DNA of 32,000 bases. It comes from an uncultured Planctomycetia bacterium. Lineage in GTDB: Bacteria > Omnitrophota > Gorgyraeia > Duberdicusellales > 4484-171. The position numbers were made by a program, and so were the translations under genes. Of this stretch, positions 10,814 to 32,000 are shown one piece after another. How positions within the stretch are numbered: position 1 is the first letter of the stretch; every line of letters starts with the position of its first letter. Location of the stretch: assembly GCA_964536865.1 (NCBI GenBank), contig CAZHYN010000006.1, positions 30,001 to 62,000 of the forward strand. Reading direction: 5' to 3'. The notes beneath the pieces are model-generated. The model worked only from the letters and a program-made list of their open reading frames with translations. It ran no database searches and had not been told where the DNA came from.

Positions 10814-10841
10814 TTGCCTAAATATTTTTCTATGTTATAAT
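10814..10841 (+). promoter_or_regulatory. Putative sigma70 promoter (TTGCCT-N16-TATAAT) driving the tRNA-Phe array
   Basis: The hexamers were read directly. The -10 ends 19 nt before the first tRNA-derived segment (10860). Confidence 0.5.
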
Positions 10842-10859: not shown

Positions 10860-10895
10860 GTGCCGAGGTAGCTCAGGAGGTAGAGCGAGGGACTG
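10860..10895 (+). repeat. Orphan exact copy of the tRNA-Phe 5' half (2 nt of leader + positions 1-34, ending at anticodon G34)
   Basis: A 36-nt perfect direct repeat of 10995-11030 (GTGCCGAGGTAGCTCAGGAGGTAGAGCGAGGGACTG). The sequences diverge immediately after G34. Confidence 0.95.
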
Positions 10896-10896
10896 T

Positions 10897-10944
10897 ATGT
10901 GATCTCCGACGTTAGTCGGAGTTGCCCGAAGGGCAAAATCACAT
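10897..10944 (+). other. Perfect 48-nt three-way junction fused to the orphan tRNA 5' half
   Basis: The 7-bp closing stem ATGTGAT/ATCACAT (10897-10903 / 10938-10944) encloses the hairpins CTCCGAC-GTTA-GTCGGAG and TTGCCC-GAA-GGGCAA. The junction linkers are 0-1 nt. Confidence 0.6.
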
Positions 10945-10996
10945 CCAGTTATTACTTTTGCTTAATCGAAAAACTTTTGATTAAAAATAAAACTGT

Positions 10997-11069
10997 GCCG
11001 AGGTAGCTCAGGAGGTAGAGCGAGGGACTGAAAATCCCTGCGTCGGGGGTTCGACTCCCTCCCTCGGCA
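10997..11069 (+). tRNA. tRNA-Phe (anticodon GAA), CCA not encoded
   Basis: Manual cloverleaf: GCCGAGG/TA/GCTC-AGGAGGTA-GAGC/G/AGGGA-CTGAAAA-TCCCT/GCGTC/GGGGG-TTCGACT-CCCTC/CCTCGGC/A. Confidence 0.92.
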
Positions 11070-11137
11070 CTTTTATCTCTAATTTATAAGTTTATTCTCC
11101 TCTCTGTGCGTCTTTAAGTGTTCCTAGGCAATGTCGG

Positions 11138-11196
11138 ATCCAACATATAAATACTTTGGTTTCACCAAAGGTTGGATACGACTCCCTCCCTCGGCA
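11138..11196 (+). repeat. tRNA-tail unit A: nested stem-loop + exact copy of tRNA-Phe positions 56-73
   Basis: The outer stem is ATCCAAC/GTTGGAT. It is followed by a 9-nt A-rich bulge, the hairpin CTTTGGT-TTC-ACCAAAG, an A, and then CGACTCCCTCCCTCGGCA (11179-11196), which equals 11052-11069 at an offset of +127. Confidence 0.85.
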
Positions 11197-11266
11197 TAGT
11201 TTATCCTCACATTCATTAACTTCTTTTTTAAGCTGGAAGTTAGCTCTGAGACGAAAGTATCGTCGG

Positions 11267-11326
11267 AACAAATAAGGGAAAATCGCCTTTGGCGAATTTG
11301 TTACGACTCCCTCCCTCGGCACTTTT
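11267..11326 (+). repeat. tRNA-tail unit B: nested stem-loop + exact copy of tRNA-Phe positions 56-73 plus 5 nt of 3' flank
   Basis: The outer stem is AACAAAT/ATTTGTT. It is followed by the 9-nt bulge AAGGGAAAA, the hairpin TCGCC-TTT-GGCGA, an A, and then CGACTCCCTCCCTCGGCACTTTT (11304-11326), at +125 from unit A. Confidence 0.85.
11274..11295 (-). terminator. Possible intrinsic terminator for the convergent dgkA operon (the same hairpin as in unit B, read on the minus strand)
   Basis: The minus strand reads TCGCC-AAA-GGCGA followed by TTTTCCCTT. The stem is short (5 bp). Confidence 0.3.
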
Positions 11327-11398
11327 TGTTTTTAAAGTCAGAATTGGAGATATTTTATTTCTGAAGTTACTTCCTACTTTATTATCTTATTAGTGTTC

Positions 11399-11782
11399 CT
11401 ATTTTGATAGAAAAGATATGATTTTAGGGAAAAAGAGGATTAAGCCAATAATTATTGCTCCTAAAGAGGAGAGGAGAACTGCTGCGGATGATATATCTTT
11501 AAGGAGCTTTATTTTAGGATCATTTTGAGGCTGGATCATATTAAGAATATACTCCACAAGAGTATTAAAAACTTCACATACGAAAACACCAACAGTAACA
11601 ATTATCAATATAACAAGTTCATCTGGAGAGAGTTTAAAAATGATACCGAACACAATTACTATCAAGCCAATGAGGAATATAAGACGCGCATTTCTTTCCG
11701 TTGCAAGTACAACTTTTAATCCTTTTAAAGCTCCCAAAAGACTTTCTCTTATGTTTCTATGTTTCCAAATTTTATTAGCCAT
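11399..11782 (-). CDS. dgkA: Diacylglycerol/undecaprenol kinase (prokaryotic DgkA family)
   Basis: 127 aa and three TM segments, with the ERNARL motif and E..NT..E......DP.....KD.SSAAVL motif characteristic of DgkA. Confidence 0.8.
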   Translation of the reverse strand: MANKIWKHRNIRESLLGALKGLKVVLATERNARLIFLIGLIVIVFGIIFKLSPDELVILIIVTVGVFVCEVFNTLVEYILNMIQPQNDPKIKLLKDISSAAVLLSSLGAIIIGLILFFPKIISFLSK

Positions 11783-11811: not shown

Positions 11812-14800
11812 TCAAAATGGTAAACCAAATCCTCCATGGAGACGTGAGCGAGTAGTATCTTTATCTGCTCCTATCTTAAATCCATAGTCTAATTTTACAA
11901 ATCCCCATTTTGTTCTAAATCGCAATCCTATCCCACCTCCGCTTTTAAATTTATTCAAAGAAAAATCATTCGCTTCCTCTATTAGAAATCCTGTATCCAA
12001 AAATGCAGCTCCATAGAGTAGATTCTTATACAAAGGAAATCTAAATTCTATATTGATTACACCAAAAAAATTCCCTCCTAACGGAAGAAGATTGTTATCT
12101 AGCATTCCTACTTTTCTTCCTTTGTACCCTCTTATAGTAGAAGAACCTCCTATATAAAACTTTTCAAAAAAAGGAACTTCATTAGTTCCCCCAAAAGCAT
12201 CTAAATATCCCCATTTAGTTCTGAGTACAAACACTCTATCTTTTTTAAGATTATAATAACGGCGGTAATCTAATTGAATTCTATAGAAATCAAAATCTGA
12301 ACCAATAATTTGAGAAGAGATGTCTTGTTGAATTTTAAAGTAGGTTCCACTGGTAGGATAAATTTTATCATTAGTAGTTTTTCTTAGAAATTTTATGAAT
12401 AAGAAATCTACTTTAGGTTTTCCATAATAACTTTTAATTTTGACAGGTGCAGAAGGGTCTAAATCATAAATACTATACTTATAGGAGGAAAATCCTAAAT
12501 AGATTTTACTATTTTGTGTAAAATATGTTCCCAGATAGAGATCGTACATAAGTTTCCCTTTCAAATTATATCTTGAATCTGATTCCCATCGTCCCTTAAA
12601 TGAGAGGCCACCAAAGAATATACTGTTCAATATTTCATCCTTTTCAAAGCCTAATTTTAACTTCTTTTCATAAGAGGAGTATTTACCTCCAAAAATACCC
12701 TTAAAGTTCTTATGTTCATACTTTAGGTGTGCTTTTTCTCCAGTAGGTGCGGATATTTTTAGTTCTCCTATTCTTTGGATTTTCTTTTCCTCTTTTAAAG
12801 TAAGATTAAGAAATTCTAAAATTTTATTTTCGACGTATCCAAAAGATAAGTAAGAACTGAAGTGCCCCTCCGGAAGCCAAATAATGCGGGGATATTCCAG
12901 AGAACGCCATAGACTCACGCTACACTCAGAGGGCATGTCCTTGTCAAATAGAGCATTTATCATAAGGATAGTTTTGTTTTTGGCTTTAAAAGAAAAATTT
13001 AAAGGATCGATAATATTTACCTCTTCTAGGATTTTCTGTATCTGTTTTTCTTTAAGTTTTAATCTATATTTTTTAAGTAATCTACTCTTTAGTATAAACT
13101 TTTCGAAATCTGCACCCCCAAGGAGAAATACACCTCTGTTTATCGTTGCATCTTTGCCTAGAAGAGTTCCTGCAATGATAGCTCCTAGACTTAATCCTCC
13201 CAGAGCTATCCTATCATTATTTATAAAAGATTGTCTCTTCAGCCACTCTAAGGTATTTCCCCCTTCAATAGTTAGTTCTTTTATTAGATCTGTATAAATT
13301 TTTACTCTTTTTTGAAGGGATATATTCCTTAGTCTATCTTTATGTTGATGGTAAAATTTTTTTGCACCTAGTTCTAAAGTTACAAAAGCAAAATTATTCT
13401 TCGTTAAGAATTTTCCTAAATTTTCTTCAATGAATTTACTTACCCCTCCAGAGTGAGGGAGGAAAAATAAACAAGGATATTTTCCCTTCTTATTAGAAAG
13501 GAAGAGATAGATAAAAATATATTTGTTAGGTAATTTTAAATCTAATTTGCTTTCATAAACAAAAGTTAATTTTCTATAGTATTTTTTATTTTCTTCTTTT
13601 TCTAAAATAGGAAATATTTCTCTTTCATTTTCTTTCAAAAATCGATAAGGATTTTTAGTAGTTTTTGGAGGCAATTTTTTGCCAAATTCTTTTTCTAGGG
13701 AAAAATCAATTTCTTTTTCAGAGAGGAGGAAATACAGTCTTAGTTCATCAGGAACGAACAAGACACTTTGTAAAGTTCCCCCTCCTTTCCCTATAGGTGG
13801 TGTTCTTAATAAATTAAATGTACTTTTTAAATCAAACTTTTTATTGCCTCTCGCAGTTTTCTTGAACTGAACCAATCGCTTATACGAACTAGTTTCTTCT
13901 AATTTTGTCTTTGGATACACCGCTTTCATAGTTTGGAATAGTCTTTCTGTGAGATAGTGATTTACAGCAATAAGATACTTATCTTTTGGAAAAATAATCT
14001 CGTACATTCTTGCTGAGACTTCTGCGACAAATGCACTGTTCGTTTTCCCATCAGTTATAGTTATGGTATATCCCCTCATTCTTTTTGATTTAGATATTTC
14101 TCTTAGAGCTTTCCATAGATCAGGAGAATATTGGATAATTTTCCTTAAAAGGAACATAATCGGGATTCCAGTTTTTGATAAATCTTCAGTTCCCACTCCA
14201 GTTTCTCCTAAAGATATTCTATTTGCATTCATACCAGTTAACACTCCACACATTCCTGGCCAGCCAATGTGCACAAAAGGAAAGCCATTGTCGGGTTCTA
14301 CGAAAAAGATTACCCTATTTTTAAATAGATTTTTTCGTGGAGCAAAACCTAGATTTCTTCCATGAAAAAGTTTGTTACTTTGAGTTAATTCAGGCAAAAG
14401 TACGAAATTAGTACATGTTTTTTTAATTTTTCTTAAGAGAGGCATAACATCTAGAAAGGTATGCATCAGAAGAATTTTTTGATAAGATAGACCGCTTCCT
14501 TTAGCCACTCCTCTCATTTCTTCCCTAAATTCAGAAGGGATATATTTTTCTAATTGTCTCGATTTAAGTTTAAAGTACTGCAAGATAATCCACCGTTTTA
14601 ATTTTGAATGAGAAGAACTTTGGAGAAGCTCTTTTAAGAAGTAATTATTATAAAGTTGACGAATTTGGTTTCTTAAAAGATATCCGTGCTGAAATCCTCT
14701 TATAAATGGAGAACCTTTAAGATGAACTACAAGAATTCCATTTGTATTTTTTAAAGACGCTCCTTTTAGATAGTTTACTTTAGGTGAAGTGGAAGAAGGA

Positions 14801-14850
14801 AGGATAAAGAAAATAGTAATAGTAAAAATCGAAACAATAAATTTCTTCAC
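11812..14850 (-). CDS. Exported multidomain protein: signal peptide + C45-family Ntn hydrolase/acyltransferase + alpha/beta-hydrolase + C-terminal Omp85 (surface antigen D15) beta-barrel
   Basis: 1012 aa, GTG start. The signal peptide is KKFIVSIFTITIFFILPSS. The C45 signature is GSPFIRGFQHG ... KTC(146)TNF ... HGRNLGF ... WPGMCGVLTGMNANRISLGE. The hydrolase has the elbow GGLS(554)LGA plus FDKD and PEGH. From aa ~695 there are alternating aromatic beta-strands, ending ...GGIGLRFRT..VKLDYGF...GGFGLPF. Confidence 0.75.
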   Translation of the reverse strand: MKKFIVSIFTITIFFILPSSTSPKVNYLKGASLKNTNGILVVHLKGSPFIRGFQHGYLLRNQIRQLYNNYFLKELLQSSSHSKLKRWIILQYFKLKSRQLEKYIPSEFREEMRGVAKGSGLSYQKILLMHTFLDVMPLLRKIKKTCTNFVLLPELTQSNKLFHGRNLGFAPRKNLFKNRVIFFVEPDNGFPFVHIGWPGMCGVLTGMNANRISLGETGVGTEDLSKTGIPIMFLLRKIIQYSPDLWKALREISKSKRMRGYTITITDGKTNSAFVAEVSARMYEIIFPKDKYLIAVNHYLTERLFQTMKAVYPKTKLEETSSYKRLVQFKKTARGNKKFDLKSTFNLLRTPPIGKGGGTLQSVLFVPDELRLYFLLSEKEIDFSLEKEFGKKLPPKTTKNPYRFLKENEREIFPILEKEENKKYYRKLTFVYESKLDLKLPNKYIFIYLFLSNKKGKYPCLFFLPHSGGVSKFIEENLGKFLTKNNFAFVTLELGAKKFYHQHKDRLRNISLQKRVKIYTDLIKELTIEGGNTLEWLKRQSFINNDRIALGGLSLGAIIAGTLLGKDATINRGVFLLGGADFEKFILKSRLLKKYRLKLKEKQIQKILEEVNIIDPLNFSFKAKNKTILMINALFDKDMPSECSVSLWRSLEYPRIIWLPEGHFSSYLSFGYVENKILEFLNLTLKEEKKIQRIGELKISAPTGEKAHLKYEHKNFKGIFGGKYSSYEKKLKLGFEKDEILNSIFFGGLSFKGRWESDSRYNLKGKLMYDLYLGTYFTQNSKIYLGFSSYKYSIYDLDPSAPVKIKSYYGKPKVDFLFIKFLRKTTNDKIYPTSGTYFKIQQDISSQIIGSDFDFYRIQLDYRRYYNLKKDRVFVLRTKWGYLDAFGGTNEVPFFEKFYIGGSSTIRGYKGRKVGMLDNNLLPLGGNFFGVINIEFRFPLYKNLLYGAAFLDTGFLIEEANDFSLNKFKSGGGIGLRFRTKWGFVKLDYGFKIGADKDTTRSRLHGGFGLPF

Positions 14851-20699: not shown

Positions 20700-20724
20700 T
20701 ATAAATAGAGATACCAGATAACTC

Positions 20725-20749
20725 AGAGGTTCAAATCCTCTCTCCGGCT
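20725..20749 (+). pseudogene. Orphan tRNA 3' third (complete T-arm + acceptor 3' strand), non-identical to tRNA-Thr
   Basis: AGAGG-TTCAAAT-CCTCT-CTCCGGC-T lies 26 nt after tRNA-Thr and ends 1 nt before the AAGGAG Shine-Dalgarno of the MFS gene. There is no room upstream for the rest of a tRNA. Confidence 0.6.
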
Positions 20750-29732: not shown

Positions 29733-29809
<77 letters not shown>

Positions 29810-29874
29810 TTTCTATTAATCTTAATCTATGTTATGTAATCTTTATCTCGCTTACTATGCAAAAGCAATTTTGG

Positions 29875-29938
29875 ATGCAATAAATAAAAGACTCCGCCTC
29901 TGGCGGAGATTGCATACAAATCGGCCCCCCGCAACCAT
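29875..29938 (+). repeat. tRNA-tail unit C: nested stem-loop + exact copy of tRNA-fMet positions 56-76 plus 1 nt of flank
   Basis: The outer stem is ATGCAAT/ATTGCAT. It is followed by the 10-nt bulge AAATAAAAGA, the hairpin CTCCGCC-TCT-GGCGGAG, an A, and then CAAATCGGCCCCCCGCAACCAT (29917-29938), which equals 29789-29810 at an offset of +128. Confidence 0.85.
29882..29908 (-). terminator. Intrinsic-terminator-like hairpin + U-tract on the minus strand (the inner hairpin of unit C)
   Basis: The minus strand reads CTCCGCC-AGA-GGCGGAG followed by TCTTTTATTT. No annotated minus-strand gene reads into it. Confidence 0.4.
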
Positions 29939-30012
29939 CTAAATTTCTACCCGAGCTTTAAGAGATACTACTTTTATATTATAGGCGAGCGTAATTTTGA
30001 TGTGATAAATAT

Positions 30013-30049
30013 GTGAACGTTTCAACTTAGGGAAGGTTGCACACAAATC
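30013..30049 (+). repeat. Degenerate third unit (D) of the fMet array
   Basis: GTGAAC...GTTGCAC forms an outer stem with one bulge, followed by A and CAAATC (30044-30049), exactly +127 from unit C. The rest of the tRNA tail is lost and the interior is shortened. Confidence 0.4.
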
Positions 30050-30167
30050 ACTTATCTATAACTCCTCCTTAATATTTTTTTTATCTTGTTGATATTTTTT
30101 AGTTAAGTTAAAGAGAGAGTAAAAAAATATTGCTTTTAATAAAGGATTTTGTTAAAATTTAAACTAA

Positions 30168-32000
30168 ATGAGAATTTTTTGCTTTTTTTTAATTCTTTTG
30201 CTTTTATTTGTACCCTTAGGGGCAAAAGCTTCTTTAGGAAGTAAATACTGTGTAGAATTAGGAAGGAATTATTTAAAGAAAGGAGATATATATCAAGCAG
30301 AGATAGAATTTAGAAAAGCCCTTCTTATAAATCCTTCTGAAGAAGAAGCAAAGAAATTTTTAGAAGAGATAAGAAGAGAAAAGATTAAAAAAACTCTGGA
30401 TTTTTACTCTAAAGGCAAAGTTTCCCCAAAAGTGGTTTCTCCTCCGCCAAAAGAGAGTTTTTCCCCTGAGCCTTCTCCTCCTAAGAAAGAGACTAAAAGT
30501 GAATGGAAATTAGAGGGAGTATATCAGACAGGATTTGGAATAACTAATGATAGCTTCATCTGGAAAAGGGCTAACTGGGATTTGAACGAGGAAGATTGGC
30601 GAATTATCTCGAGTAAAGCTTACGATAATAGAGCAAATACTTTCGACCCAGCGATATTTACTCAAGTTAGGTTTCAATTAGATTCTCCTTCTCTAGAGGG
30701 GTGGAAATTCCATACTAATATTGATGTTAGTCCTTGGAGTTTTGTGGGTAAAAGCAACAAAGTTACTATAGAAGGAATTGATACTGGGACAGGTTTAGTT
30801 AGCGATAGAGTAGAGATTCAGTTAAAATACTGGGCAAATACAGGTTATACCGTAAATGAAACTTACTATACTCTAGAAGATGGAGCGCCTCTAGGATTAC
30901 CGGAAATAAAAGTTGTGAGAGGGAGAACTCTTCCTATGGAGATTTCTGGTATAGATTGGGGAGGCGATGGCATTCCTGACTATACTTATAATCTTCCTGA
31001 GTTAGATATTCACCGAAGATTCTGGCCGTTAAGGGAGCTTTGGTTTGATTACAATTCGTATAATTTCAATTTTCGTCTCTTCCCTGTAGCTTTACAAAAC
31101 CAGGCTTATACCTCTGACGATATATTAGGACTCTCCAATCATATTATTTGGTGGGAGGAATCTCCTTGGTTAGATATTTGGCAACCTGGACATGTAGATA
31201 CAGGGACAGAACCTTTGGATTTCTTTAAAGGTTACTGGGATGATTCTTTAACTTGGCTTGCTAGAGATTCGCAAGGAGTTCGTCTTACCAATTTAAGAGG
31301 TTTTTCTTTCTCTTGGAACCAAGATAGTACCAGCTGGGATTTTACTTTCGCTTCTCCCAAAACATTATGGCAGGATTATGATGAGTTTAATACCTATGTA
31401 AGTGCTTTGAGAGGTAAGTATTTTCTCAATGATAACTTTTGGATAGGAGGAATTTATACTTGTAAATTAGGTTATAATAAGGGTAGTCGAGATGCTACTA
31501 ACCAGGCTGTAGGAGTAGACCTTACTTATGGAGTTTCCAGTAATACCAAGGTGAGTTTAGAACTAGCTACTTCAAAATCTGTAAAAGACAAAATCTCTTC
31601 TTACAAGAGTGACTATCGAGGTAATGCGGTAAAGTTTAGCATCATTAGTTCGTCTGAAAGTGATATTTTTGATACTGACTATTTTGGGATAAATCCCCCT
31701 AAAGATTCTGAAGCTCCCTTCTATAAGTTAAGGATAGAACTTACCCATATGGACGAGGGATTTGAGGCAGGTTTGTCCAGTTTCAGAGAAACCAGGGATG
31801 ATATGTTCTGGTCACGACACCTCCATTTTAGAGAACCATTCAGATATTACTATGCTGGGTTATACGAACCTACATTAACTTGGGATGACATAAGACCTTT
31901 CAGGATAGGAGATGGTATTGATTACGGAAGGGATGTGATAGGTTTAAGGATAGAAGGAGTTAACTTTCTAAAAGGAAAATGCGATTGGTTGTTTGATATA
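30168..32000 (+). CDS. Large secreted protein, N-terminal 611 aa (3' end outside window): signal peptide + TPR-like repeat + Pro-rich linker + aromatic/beta-rich domain
   Basis: I translated codon by codon from ATG 30168 to nt 32000 and found no stop. The N-terminus is MRIFCFFLILLLLFVPLGAKA. It is followed by ELGRNYLKKGDIYQAEIEFRKALLINPSEEEA (TPR-like) and PPPKESFSPEPSPPKKE, then a W/Y/F-rich region. It is absent from the ORF track because it is open-ended. Confidence 0.7.
   Translation, partial: MRIFCFFLILLLLFVPLGAKASLGSKYCVELGRNYLKKGDIYQAEIEFRKALLINPSEEEAKKFLEEIRREKIKKTLDFYSKGKVSPKVVSPPPKESFSPEPSPPKKETKSEWKLEGVYQTGFGITNDSFIWKRANWDLNEEDWRIISSKAYDNRANTFDPAIFTQVRFQLDSPSLEGWKFHTNIDVSPWSFVGKSNKVTIEGIDTGTGLVSDRVEIQLKYWANTGYTVNETYYTLEDGAPLGLPEIKVVRGRTLPMEISGIDWGGDGIPDYTYNLPELDIHRRFWPLRELWFDYNSYNFNFRLFPVALQNQAYTSDDILGLSNHIIWWEESPWLDIWQPGHVDTGTEPLDFFKGYWDDSLTWLARDSQGVRLTNLRGFSFSWNQDSTSWDFTFASPKTLWQDYDEFNTYVSALRGKYFLNDNFWIGGIYTCKLGYNKGSRDATNQAVGVDLTYGVSSNTKVSLELATSKSVKDKISSYKSDYRGNAVKFSIISSSESDIFDTDYFGINPPKDSEAPFYKLRIELTHMDEGFEAGLSSFRETRDDMFWSRHLHFREPFRYYYAGLYEPTLTWDDIRPFRIGDGIDYGRDVIGLRIEGVNFLKGKCDWLFDI

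Follow-up and report, generated by a model that had tools for sequence, protein, structure and literature searches.

The stretch analysed here (the window) comprises 32,000 nucleotides (nt) of contig CAZHYN010000006.1, positions 30,001 to 62,000 of the forward strand, from an uncultured bacterium; homologues of its dgkA and enolase genes are labelled Candidatus Omnitrophota/Omnitrophica by their sources. The window carries a tRNA-Phe gene (anticodon GAA) at 10997-11069 on the plus strand, recognised by ARAGORN and Rfam, and a second target gene, an initiator tRNA-Met (tRNA-fMet, anticodon CAT), at 29733-29809 on the plus strand, likewise found with ARAGORN/Rfam. Both genes are flanked by short units in which a copy of part of the tRNA gene lies directly against a hairpin, and these units are the subject of the present analysis.

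Two junctions within tRNA-Phe delimit the copied segments, the T-loop junction T55|C56 (11051|11052) and the anticodon-loop junction G34|A35 (11030|11031). The last 18 nt of the gene, C56 to A73 (CGACTCCCTCCCTCGGCA), start at 11052 and recur exactly at 11179 and 11304 with spacings of 127 and 125 nt, as a preliminary description of the locus had reported, and the last copy runs on into CTTTTT, which resembles the native flank. Unit A (127 nt, 11070-11196, plus strand) consists of a left part at 11070-11132, a hairpin at 11133-11182 and a tail copy at 11179-11196. Unit B (125 nt, 11197-11321, plus strand) is built in the same way from a left part at 11197-11261, a hairpin at 11262-11307 and a tail copy at 11304-11321. 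The unit A hairpin reads GTCG-G-ATCCAAC-ATATAAATA-CTTTGGT TTC ACCAAAG-GTTGGAT-A-CGAC, with a single-stranded DNA (ssDNA) fold at z = -6.3, and that of unit B reads GTCG-G-AACAAAT-AAGGGAAAA-TCGCC TTT GGCGA-ATTTGTT-A-CGAC, at z = -5.5. The nested hairpin flush before each copy had been described before, and the design scan given below recovers both. The 7-bp outer stem assigned to it is present; the stem as a whole really spans 12 positions, including a conserved G.A mismatch and, beyond it, 4 extra base pairs (GTCG/CGAC) formed with the tRNA fragment.

Repeat units had been placed on the 3' side of tRNA-Phe only, which proved too narrow. A third unit of the same design lies upstream of the gene in inverted polarity (10860-10994). 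The 36 nt at 10860-10895 (plus strand) repeat 10995-11030 without a difference and represent a displaced 5' half of tRNA-Phe, from position -2 to position 34. This copy adjoins a 58-nt three-way junction at 10892-10949 on the minus strand, which passes the same design scan on that strand and reads ACTG-G-ATGTGAT-[TTGCCC TTC GGGCAA][CTCCGAC TAAC GTCGGAG]-ATCACAT-A-CAGT and then continues into the antisense of tRNA positions 30 to 1. Its ssDNA fold reaches z = -9.5, and the RNA fold of 10860-10996 reaches z = -5.2. The remaining 45 nt (10950-10994, plus strand), between the hairpin and the functional tRNA-Phe, contain an AT-rich hairpin. A sigma-70-like promoter (TTGCCT, 16-nt spacer, TATAAT; 10/12 matches with a TG extension) at 10814-10841 on the plus strand immediately precedes the displaced 5' half. 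It was probably the original promoter of tRNA-Phe, and its place before the displaced half fits this half being the original one. In the 5' unit, the module of the 3' units sits in the anticodon loop with its polarity inverted. At the other end of the locus, two independent Logan assemblies, SRR7517633 and SRR7517634 (L001 and L002), both stop at GGCAC in the last tRNA-Phe tail copy (window position 11318), and these ends may reflect population variation or repeat-induced assembly breaks.

The same design recurs after tRNA-fMet. Unit M1 (128 nt, 29810-29937, plus strand) has a left part at 29810-29869, a hairpin at 29870-29920 and a tail copy at 29917-29937, and it carries the 21-nt tail of tRNA-fMet itself (CAAATCGGCCCCCCGCAACCA) at a spacing of 128 nt. 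Its hairpin reads TTTG-G-ATGCAAT-AAATAAAAGA-CTCCGCC TCT GGCGGAG-ATTGCAT-A-CAAA (ssDNA z = -6.9), and the unit is kept in the related loci L027, L061 and L063. Within the M1 left part, a small hairpin at 29850-29866 (GCTT ACTATGCA AAGC) shows a compensatory double change to GTTT ... AAAC in these three loci, which may indicate that another structure of the unit is under selection as well. A decayed third unit at tRNA-fMet, tentatively assigned by reading the sequence, follows in register (+127) at 29938-30049 on the plus strand. It retains a remnant stem at 29996-30047 (TTTG-A-TGTG ... CAAC TTAGGGAAG GTTG-CACA-CAAA) and, of the tail, only CAAATC, and its fold is no better than that of shuffled sequences (z = -0.3).

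The design was scanned for on both strands as a 7-bp outer stem, a 5' bulge of 7-12 nt, an inner hairpin and no 3' bulge. Exactly three sites were found in the 32 kb (11138-11177, 11267-11302 and 29875-29915), where about 0.1 is expected in shuffles; all three lie on the plus strand, and each is followed by an A and the C56-to-3'-end copy of the upstream tRNA. The order of elements is 4 nt complementary to the first 4 nt of the tail, a G, the 7-bp stem, one or more inner hairpins flush on the 3' side, the return strand, an A and the tail. Four units of the window show this arrangement, N4'-G-7 bp ... 7 bp-A-N4-tail (A, B and M1 as well as the 5' unit, where it lies on the minus strand); it is also present in L058/L059 and L027/L061/L063 and, with a 5-bp outer stem, in L069-L073. 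Every true design match adjoins a tRNA fragment. The 4 nt preceding the hairpin in the 3' units are the complement of T-loop positions 56-59 of the tRNA that the unit follows, and the segment N4' matches three target loops in all (GTCG/CGAC, TTTG/CAAA and ACTG/CAGT), with complementarity in 7/7 hairpins; the G opposite A is equally invariant (7/7). Within the tRNA genes the junctions are TT|CGAC, TT|CAAA and, on the minus strand, TTTT|CAGT, and the base preceding the junction is A in every unit and T in the tRNA. Two variants of the architecture occur: a two-helix form in A, B and M1, with an A-rich strand in place of the small arm, and a 58-nt three-way junction in the 5' unit, L058 and L069. 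The spacing between the arms varies from 22 to 34 nt, and the ssDNA folds of the intact hairpins agree with the design, with z-scores of -4.3 to -9.5.

Comparison among the hairpins indicates that the structure is maintained. Seven hairpins, registered by hand on the proposed structure with 4+1+7+5 positions per side, a procedure that favours this structure, are paired in 94.6% of cells, and changes on both sides occur in 15 of the 16 pairs. None of 500 shuffles reaches the observed level, and sliding the partner lowers pairing to 27-42%. Four of the seven were found through the tRNA repeat alone, the hairpin being seen only afterwards. The outer stem is semi-conserved (approximately ATSNAAY/RTTNSAT) and so is not sequence-free, which corrects the preliminary statement that the stems differ completely. 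Between the window and L061, divergence in neighbouring genes and spacer is about 10%; across M1 the two differ at 5 of 60 positions in the left part and at 0 of 68 in hairpin plus tail (Fisher's test, p = 0.02), and the chance of no change in 68 positions at 10% divergence is about 8e-4 (0.9^68). Among 35 distinct A+fMet-tail fragments used as a control, a flush 7-bp inverted repeat occurs in 1 of the 33 from other taxa, with one mismatch. Selection on the hairpin structure is supported by the compensatory change across the seven hairpins and by the absence of change against the strain diverged by about 10%, in agreement with the earlier suggestion of compensatory change in a selected structure.

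Related Omnitrophota loci show the units filled, decayed and empty. In L058/L059, from a species whose dgkA is 71% identical, a single unit follows tRNA-Phe at a spacing of 134 nt with its own tail variant (CCCTT against CCCTC), and its hairpin, GTCG-G-ATGAAAT-[two hairpins]-ATTTCAT-A-CGAC, folds at z = -6.2. In L069-L073, from a species with 75% enolase identity, a tRNA-fMet unit at a spacing of 136 nt carries the variant CCGCC and a 58-nt junction, TTTG-G-GTCCA ... TGGAC-A-CAAA (z = -4.3). L030 holds a decayed tRNA-fMet unit at a spacing of 144 nt with the variant CGGCT. The tails are thus each genome's own tRNA variant (CCCTC against CCCTT at tRNA-Phe; CGGCC, CCGCC and CGGCT at tRNA-fMet), and the stems are kept, which answers the question posed earlier of whether units elsewhere carry the tail of their neighbouring tRNA. 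The comparison of presence and absence that had been suggested is likewise positive between species: the tRNA-fMet site is filled in three species and empty in five, and the empty sites (L067, L074, L076, L078 and L265) have ordinary flank or a terminator directly after the gene. In L030 (6911-7100), ATGAAAG and a strong terminator stand after both tRNA-fMet and the displaced tail, with different stem sequences, which would mean that the incoming unit gave the tRNA a new terminator. The content beyond the M1 hairpin differs in all three close strains (L063 4357-4735, L061 11713-12330 and window 29870-30170), marking a hypervariable spot. In L063, the tRNA tail gives way exactly after CAAA, at the stem foot, to some 330 nt of unrelated DNA, beyond which the L061 sequence resumes at the TetR promoter. 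Judged from its translation, a short minus-strand open reading frame (ORF) of L061 (11940-12173), lying roughly 160 nt downstream from the unit, is similar to the C terminus of an IS256/Mutator-type transposase and is a putative remnant.

We interpret the units as miniature, gene-less, site-specific insertion cassettes for tRNA-gene loops in Candidatus Omnitrophota, with the hairpin as a probable recombination site that is read folded, and we regard this interpretation as about evenly balanced between right and wrong. At about 125-145 bp, a cassette carries a duplicate of whatever tRNA segment lies past the point of insertion, which leaves the gene intact and the original segment pushed outward. 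It also includes some 45-65 nt resembling the tRNA flank and, at its far end, the hairpin or three-way junction of 46-58 nt directly against the displaced tRNA segment. Successive insertions would yield in-register tandem arrays (A and B; M1 and M2). The module would replace the 3' end when inserted at the T-loop (TT|CGAC, TT|CAAA) and the 5' half when inserted on the other strand at the anticodon loop (TTTT|CAGT). The hairpin would serve as the recombination site of the cassette, recognised folded and most plausibly in ssDNA, while the 4 nt 5' of its foot would pair with the 4 crossover nt and so match the cassette to its target loop; a recombinase would act in trans. A folded site is suggested because the sequence varies while shape, mismatch and 4-nt complementarity stay, and because the exchange in L063 starts exactly after the CAAA of the stem foot. 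A hairpin is favoured over a duplex binding site because the inter-arm spacing varies, and an ssDNA route because a 125-bp cassette would be easier to handle in that way. We offer only tentatively the further idea of a structure-guided system, in which the hairpin or three-way junction and a 4-nt guide would direct gene-less cassettes into the single-stranded loops of tRNA genes on either strand, with a trans-acting enzyme reading shape and four bases instead of an extended sequence.

Several points weigh against the cassette interpretation. The sample is small: four species supply the seven hairpins, of which two are partly decayed and some may have a common ancestry. The manual registration favours the structure it evaluates. 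Neither an excised circle nor an empty site inside a single population nor a second genomic position of any one unit was seen, and mobility of the unit would follow solely from presence and absence between species. Neither the window nor some 290 kb of related loci yielded a recombinase, which leaves the units without an enzyme link. The block from C56 to the 3' end is exactly what tyrosine integrases of the P4/ICEclc type leave, and the same Phe tail stands in a phage-like element of another metagenome-assembled genome (MAG). The homology between left parts and native flank could also point to local duplication, and on the minus strand the hairpins of A, B and M1, each with its T-rich tract, can equally be classed as terminators.

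Scars of classical integrases are the main rival. Here the units would be relics or miniaturised derivatives of classical tRNA-integrating islands moved by a T-loop tyrosine integrase, with the tails as attR/attL and the hairpin as a surviving feature of the element end (terminator, insulator or accessory protein site); we consider this somewhat unlikely. The T-loop class of tRNA integrases includes P4 and ICEclc, the latter with an 18-bp repeat, and the C56-to-3'-end block of the units is of this class. The preliminary description had recognised the C56 boundary as a classical T-loop sublocation, and the boundary is indeed common to att sites in IMG/VR and to L004 3275-3636 (MAG DBS2-1.bin114). 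The latter is a phage-like region with an excisionase-like helix-turn-helix ORF and two CGATAAT direct repeats just before an exact 18-nt tRNA-Phe tail; this tail is a classical att end, which shares with the units the C56 boundary and the junction motif ...GCATA|CGAC. The hypervariability beyond M1 among close strains, and the IS256-like remnant there, also suit such relics. So does a fragment in the window at 20700-20749, 20 nt past tRNA-Thr (CGT), which contains a diverged T-arm and acceptor segment (AGAGGTTCAAATCCTCTCTCCGGCT), lacks a hairpin, differs in L061 and L062, is absent in L055/L067 and resembles the tRNA-Thr 3' end of one related species. It is an ordinary integration scar that decays quickly among close strains, and it serves as the contrast case to the hairpin units. 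Tandem partial tRNAs and degenerate remnants have been described for tycheposons (10.1101/2020.12.28.424599), a precedent that favours the relic explanation.

Random deletion, in contrast, would not give units of 125-136 nt in five intact cases, nor would it keep a covarying stem whose last 4 bp take in the crossover nucleotides. The flush inverted repeat is missing from L004 and from classical att fragments of other taxa (1/33, mismatched). The sequences left of the junction (GTTGGATA, ATTTGTTA, ATTGCATA and ATTTCATA), of which ATTGCATA is an example, are unlike the 5' strand of the T-stem (GGGGGTT, GGCCGTT), so the inverted half-site expected of a core site is not seen. The same hairpin in inverted polarity replaces the 5' half, which is unusual for tRNA integrases, and hairpin plus tail are under purifying selection. 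Decay into att scars, raised in the preliminary description as the simpler outcome, fits the two decayed copies (window 29938-30049 and L030), whereas the intact units do not conform to it.

The searches returned no enzyme and no wider family. No integrase or transposase occurs among the window ORFs, as previously stated for integrases, or in the Pfam lists of syntenic loci; no Y1 HUH transposase (TnpA or RAYT) occurs in the related loci examined; and intI, attI and a Pc platform are absent from the window, where the array begins at the tRNA gene. None of the ORFs inside the units has a family match, and the 76-aa minus-strand ORF that runs across units at 11092-11322, also unmatched, was taken as spurious. 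Scanning a genome collection for A plus the 18-nt Phe tail gave only a chance Streptococcus match and the one MAG with the classical phage-like element. Scanning a metagenome collection for TTTGG...A plus the fMet tail gave 34 loci, of which only L027 (M1 unit) and L030 (decayed) are relevant, the others being ordinary att fragments. Pattern scans of IMG/VR gave no unit, with one chance match passing the stem filter. BLAST of the units against phages and plasmids gave no match, and no distant tail copies bounding a large element occur in the related loci examined. An exact look-up for strain variants of the GGDEF protein encoded upstream of tRNA-Phe found none on record, and a literature search on attC-like sites at tRNAs and on Omnitrophota integrases found no description of such units. 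The motif TTTATYYTC in the left parts of units is enriched across the window (19 against 6.5) and spread through coding DNA, and it was dismissed as not specific to the units.

The tails also bear on how the copies arose. Phe tails lack CCA and run on into gene flank, and the L030 copy shares 7 further flank nt with the native flank. Copying from the gene at the DNA level, and not from mature tRNA, is supported because CCA is lacking in the Phe units, gene flank is retained and tails track the tRNA gene variant of each species, which agrees with the origin proposed in the preliminary description; the sequences are thus best explained as copies of DNA. Beyond the tail, flank identity is about 70% (L058 42/60, L069 42/61), and this resemblance between the sequence after the tRNA and that after the copy, together with ATGAAAG and a terminator at both places in L030 and units that stand in register, would suit a local tandem duplication of the tRNA 3' end and its flank by replication slippage or unequal exchange, with no mobile element and the hairpin arising in place. 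Such an origin is highly improbable in our judgement, as it provides no source for a new 46-58-nt hairpin between the copies and leaves unexplained why one design should recur in four species, at two tRNAs and two loops and in both polarities, and why it should be complementary to three different loops.

Other structural origins were rejected. A retro-copy or primer-binding site is contradicted by the lack of CCA and by a boundary fixed at C56 and not at a fixed length. A target-site duplication does not agree with lengths of 18, 21, 28 and 36. A miniature inverted-repeat transposable element (MITE) with terminal inverted repeats is contradicted by 'repeats' that differ between copies and by the absence of a duplication. 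A tRNA mimic with an acceptor stem would need a strand complementary to the tail, and there is none. The pieces of a split or permuted tRNA or of an intron do not add up, and we know of no bacterial enzyme for it.

A role in the host at the level of RNA or transcription was weighed on the terminator evidence. The hairpin would act as a minus-strand terminator, as an antisense small RNA (sRNA) with 18-21 nt against the tRNA 3' end, or as a trailer or leader structure in the pre-tRNA that shields tRNA folding from the duplicate segment. Read on the minus strand, unit A has a terminator-like inner hairpin at 11154-11170, followed by TATTTATAT, as have unit B at 11283-11295 and M1 at 29892-29908, each with a T-rich tract, and the hairpin loops on this strand are purine-rich (GAA, AAA, AGA, GCAA, GTAA). 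The unit B hairpin is the first terminator-like site downstream of dgkA (11399-11782, minus strand), which makes a secondary terminator role plausible for it in the window's species. The minus strand also has a promoter-like site directed towards M1 (30006-29978), and the conservation of hairpin and tail would be in line with an RNA function. This promoter-like site is not conserved in L061, however, and no conserved promoter was found for a minus-strand transcript of the units. The T-tract is absent from the L058, L069, L030 and 5' units, and a terminated minus-strand RNA would lack the 3' strand of the outer stem and the covarying 4-nt segment. Rfam gave only the three tRNAs at threshold and nothing credible over the units even at E <= 5. 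No single role at the RNA level can account for both the 5' and the 3' units, which are oriented oppositely with respect to tRNA transcription, whereas a single DNA-level process fits the same design in both orientations. We hold an RNA role as the primary function to be quite unlikely. The seed-plus-terminator sRNA proposed in the preliminary description is not supported as the main interpretation: the terminator-like features of A, B and M1 stand, but they are missing from the units of other species and from the 5' unit, and a terminated transcript would omit the outer stem, the very part that covaries.

Should the cassette interpretation hold, with the hairpin as recombination site, the units would amount to a compact insertion module that matches itself to its target, in a phylum about which little is known, and would be a lead to a new or unusual recombinase. 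In a structure-guided system, if real, changing the four guide bases would retarget insertion. Were the hairpin only an insulator of an element end, it would still offer a reusable marker with which integration events could be dated and counted. The units may also explain assembly breaks and hypervariable regions beside Omnitrophota tRNA genes. Apart from the units, the window encodes a 1012-aa protein (11812-14850, minus strand) that joins a C45 autoproteolytic acyltransferase/hydrolase domain to an Omp85/BamA-type outer-membrane domain, an unusual fusion; its gene adjoins two spore-photoproduct-lyase-like radical SAM genes.

Comparison with known systems places the units near several classes of element. 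Transfer RNA genes are classic points of entry for mobile DNA, and the systems known there are characterised by an integrase together with an att site of specific sequence. The conserved part of the units, namely the folded DNA shape at the crossover, the pairing with the target loop and the occurrence in both polarities, sets them apart from known tRNA-targeting elements, and the cassettes are too small to encode anything. With tRNA-integrating tyrosine-integrase elements they share a displaced 3' segment repeated downstream, with direct repeats present and the tRNA gene kept intact; with the P4/ICEclc type, an identity block from the T-loop to the 3' end (18-21 nt); and with T-loop-class elements and tycheposon arrays, successive insertions that push older ones outward and leave decayed remnants. 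Unlike tyrosine-integrase elements, the units measure 125-145 bp, hold no integrase and no genes, and possess a covarying hairpin flush with the repeat whose stem takes in the first 4 repeat nt, and their module also replaces the 5' half, in inverted polarity. Intrinsic terminators resemble them in that the inner hairpins of A, B and M1, with the minus-strand T-rich tract, fit the consensus, but neither the enclosing 7+4-bp stem nor the G.A mismatch nor complementarity to a tRNA loop is required for termination, and the three-way-junction variants have no T tract.

Integron cassettes likewise form tandem series at one fixed site, and gene-less ones exist. Their attC sites, like the unit hairpins, are imperfect hairpins at the cassette end that are conserved in structure and not in sequence. 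In attC, unpaired positions mark the active strand, and the invariant G opposite A of the unit hairpins may be a counterpart. The foot of the attC hairpin pairs with bases derived from the neighbour (R''/R' pairing), just as the foot of the unit hairpin pairs with neighbouring or target nucleotides. The boxes RYYYAAC ... GTTRRRY fit fully only in unit A (ATCCAAC/GTTGGAT); in L069, GTCCAAC fits and its partner AGTGGAC does not, and the other five do not fit. The units differ from integrons in having no intI, attI or Pc, in targeting a tRNA loop, in a junction that lies outside the 7-bp stem and not inside it, and in cassettes that carry a tRNA-restoring segment.

The ends of IS200/IS605 elements carry, 5' of a subterminal hairpin, four bases that pair with the tetranucleotide that is cleaved or targeted. 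The units share with these ends, and with PATEs and REPINs, 4 nt just 5' of the hairpin foot that are complementary to such a tetranucleotide, and the L063 junction falls exactly 3' of it. PATEs and REPINs are also small gene-less elements that depend on a trans enzyme, as the units presumably do. All these families keep their hairpins alike among the copies in a genome, whereas those of A, B, M1 and the 5' unit differ within one genome. In contrast to IS200/IS605, there is no TnpA/TnpB near the units, each unit has one clear hairpin and not similar ones at both ends, the linker between hairpin and tetranucleotide is 1 nt, and the targets are limited to tRNA loops, where the gene is restored.

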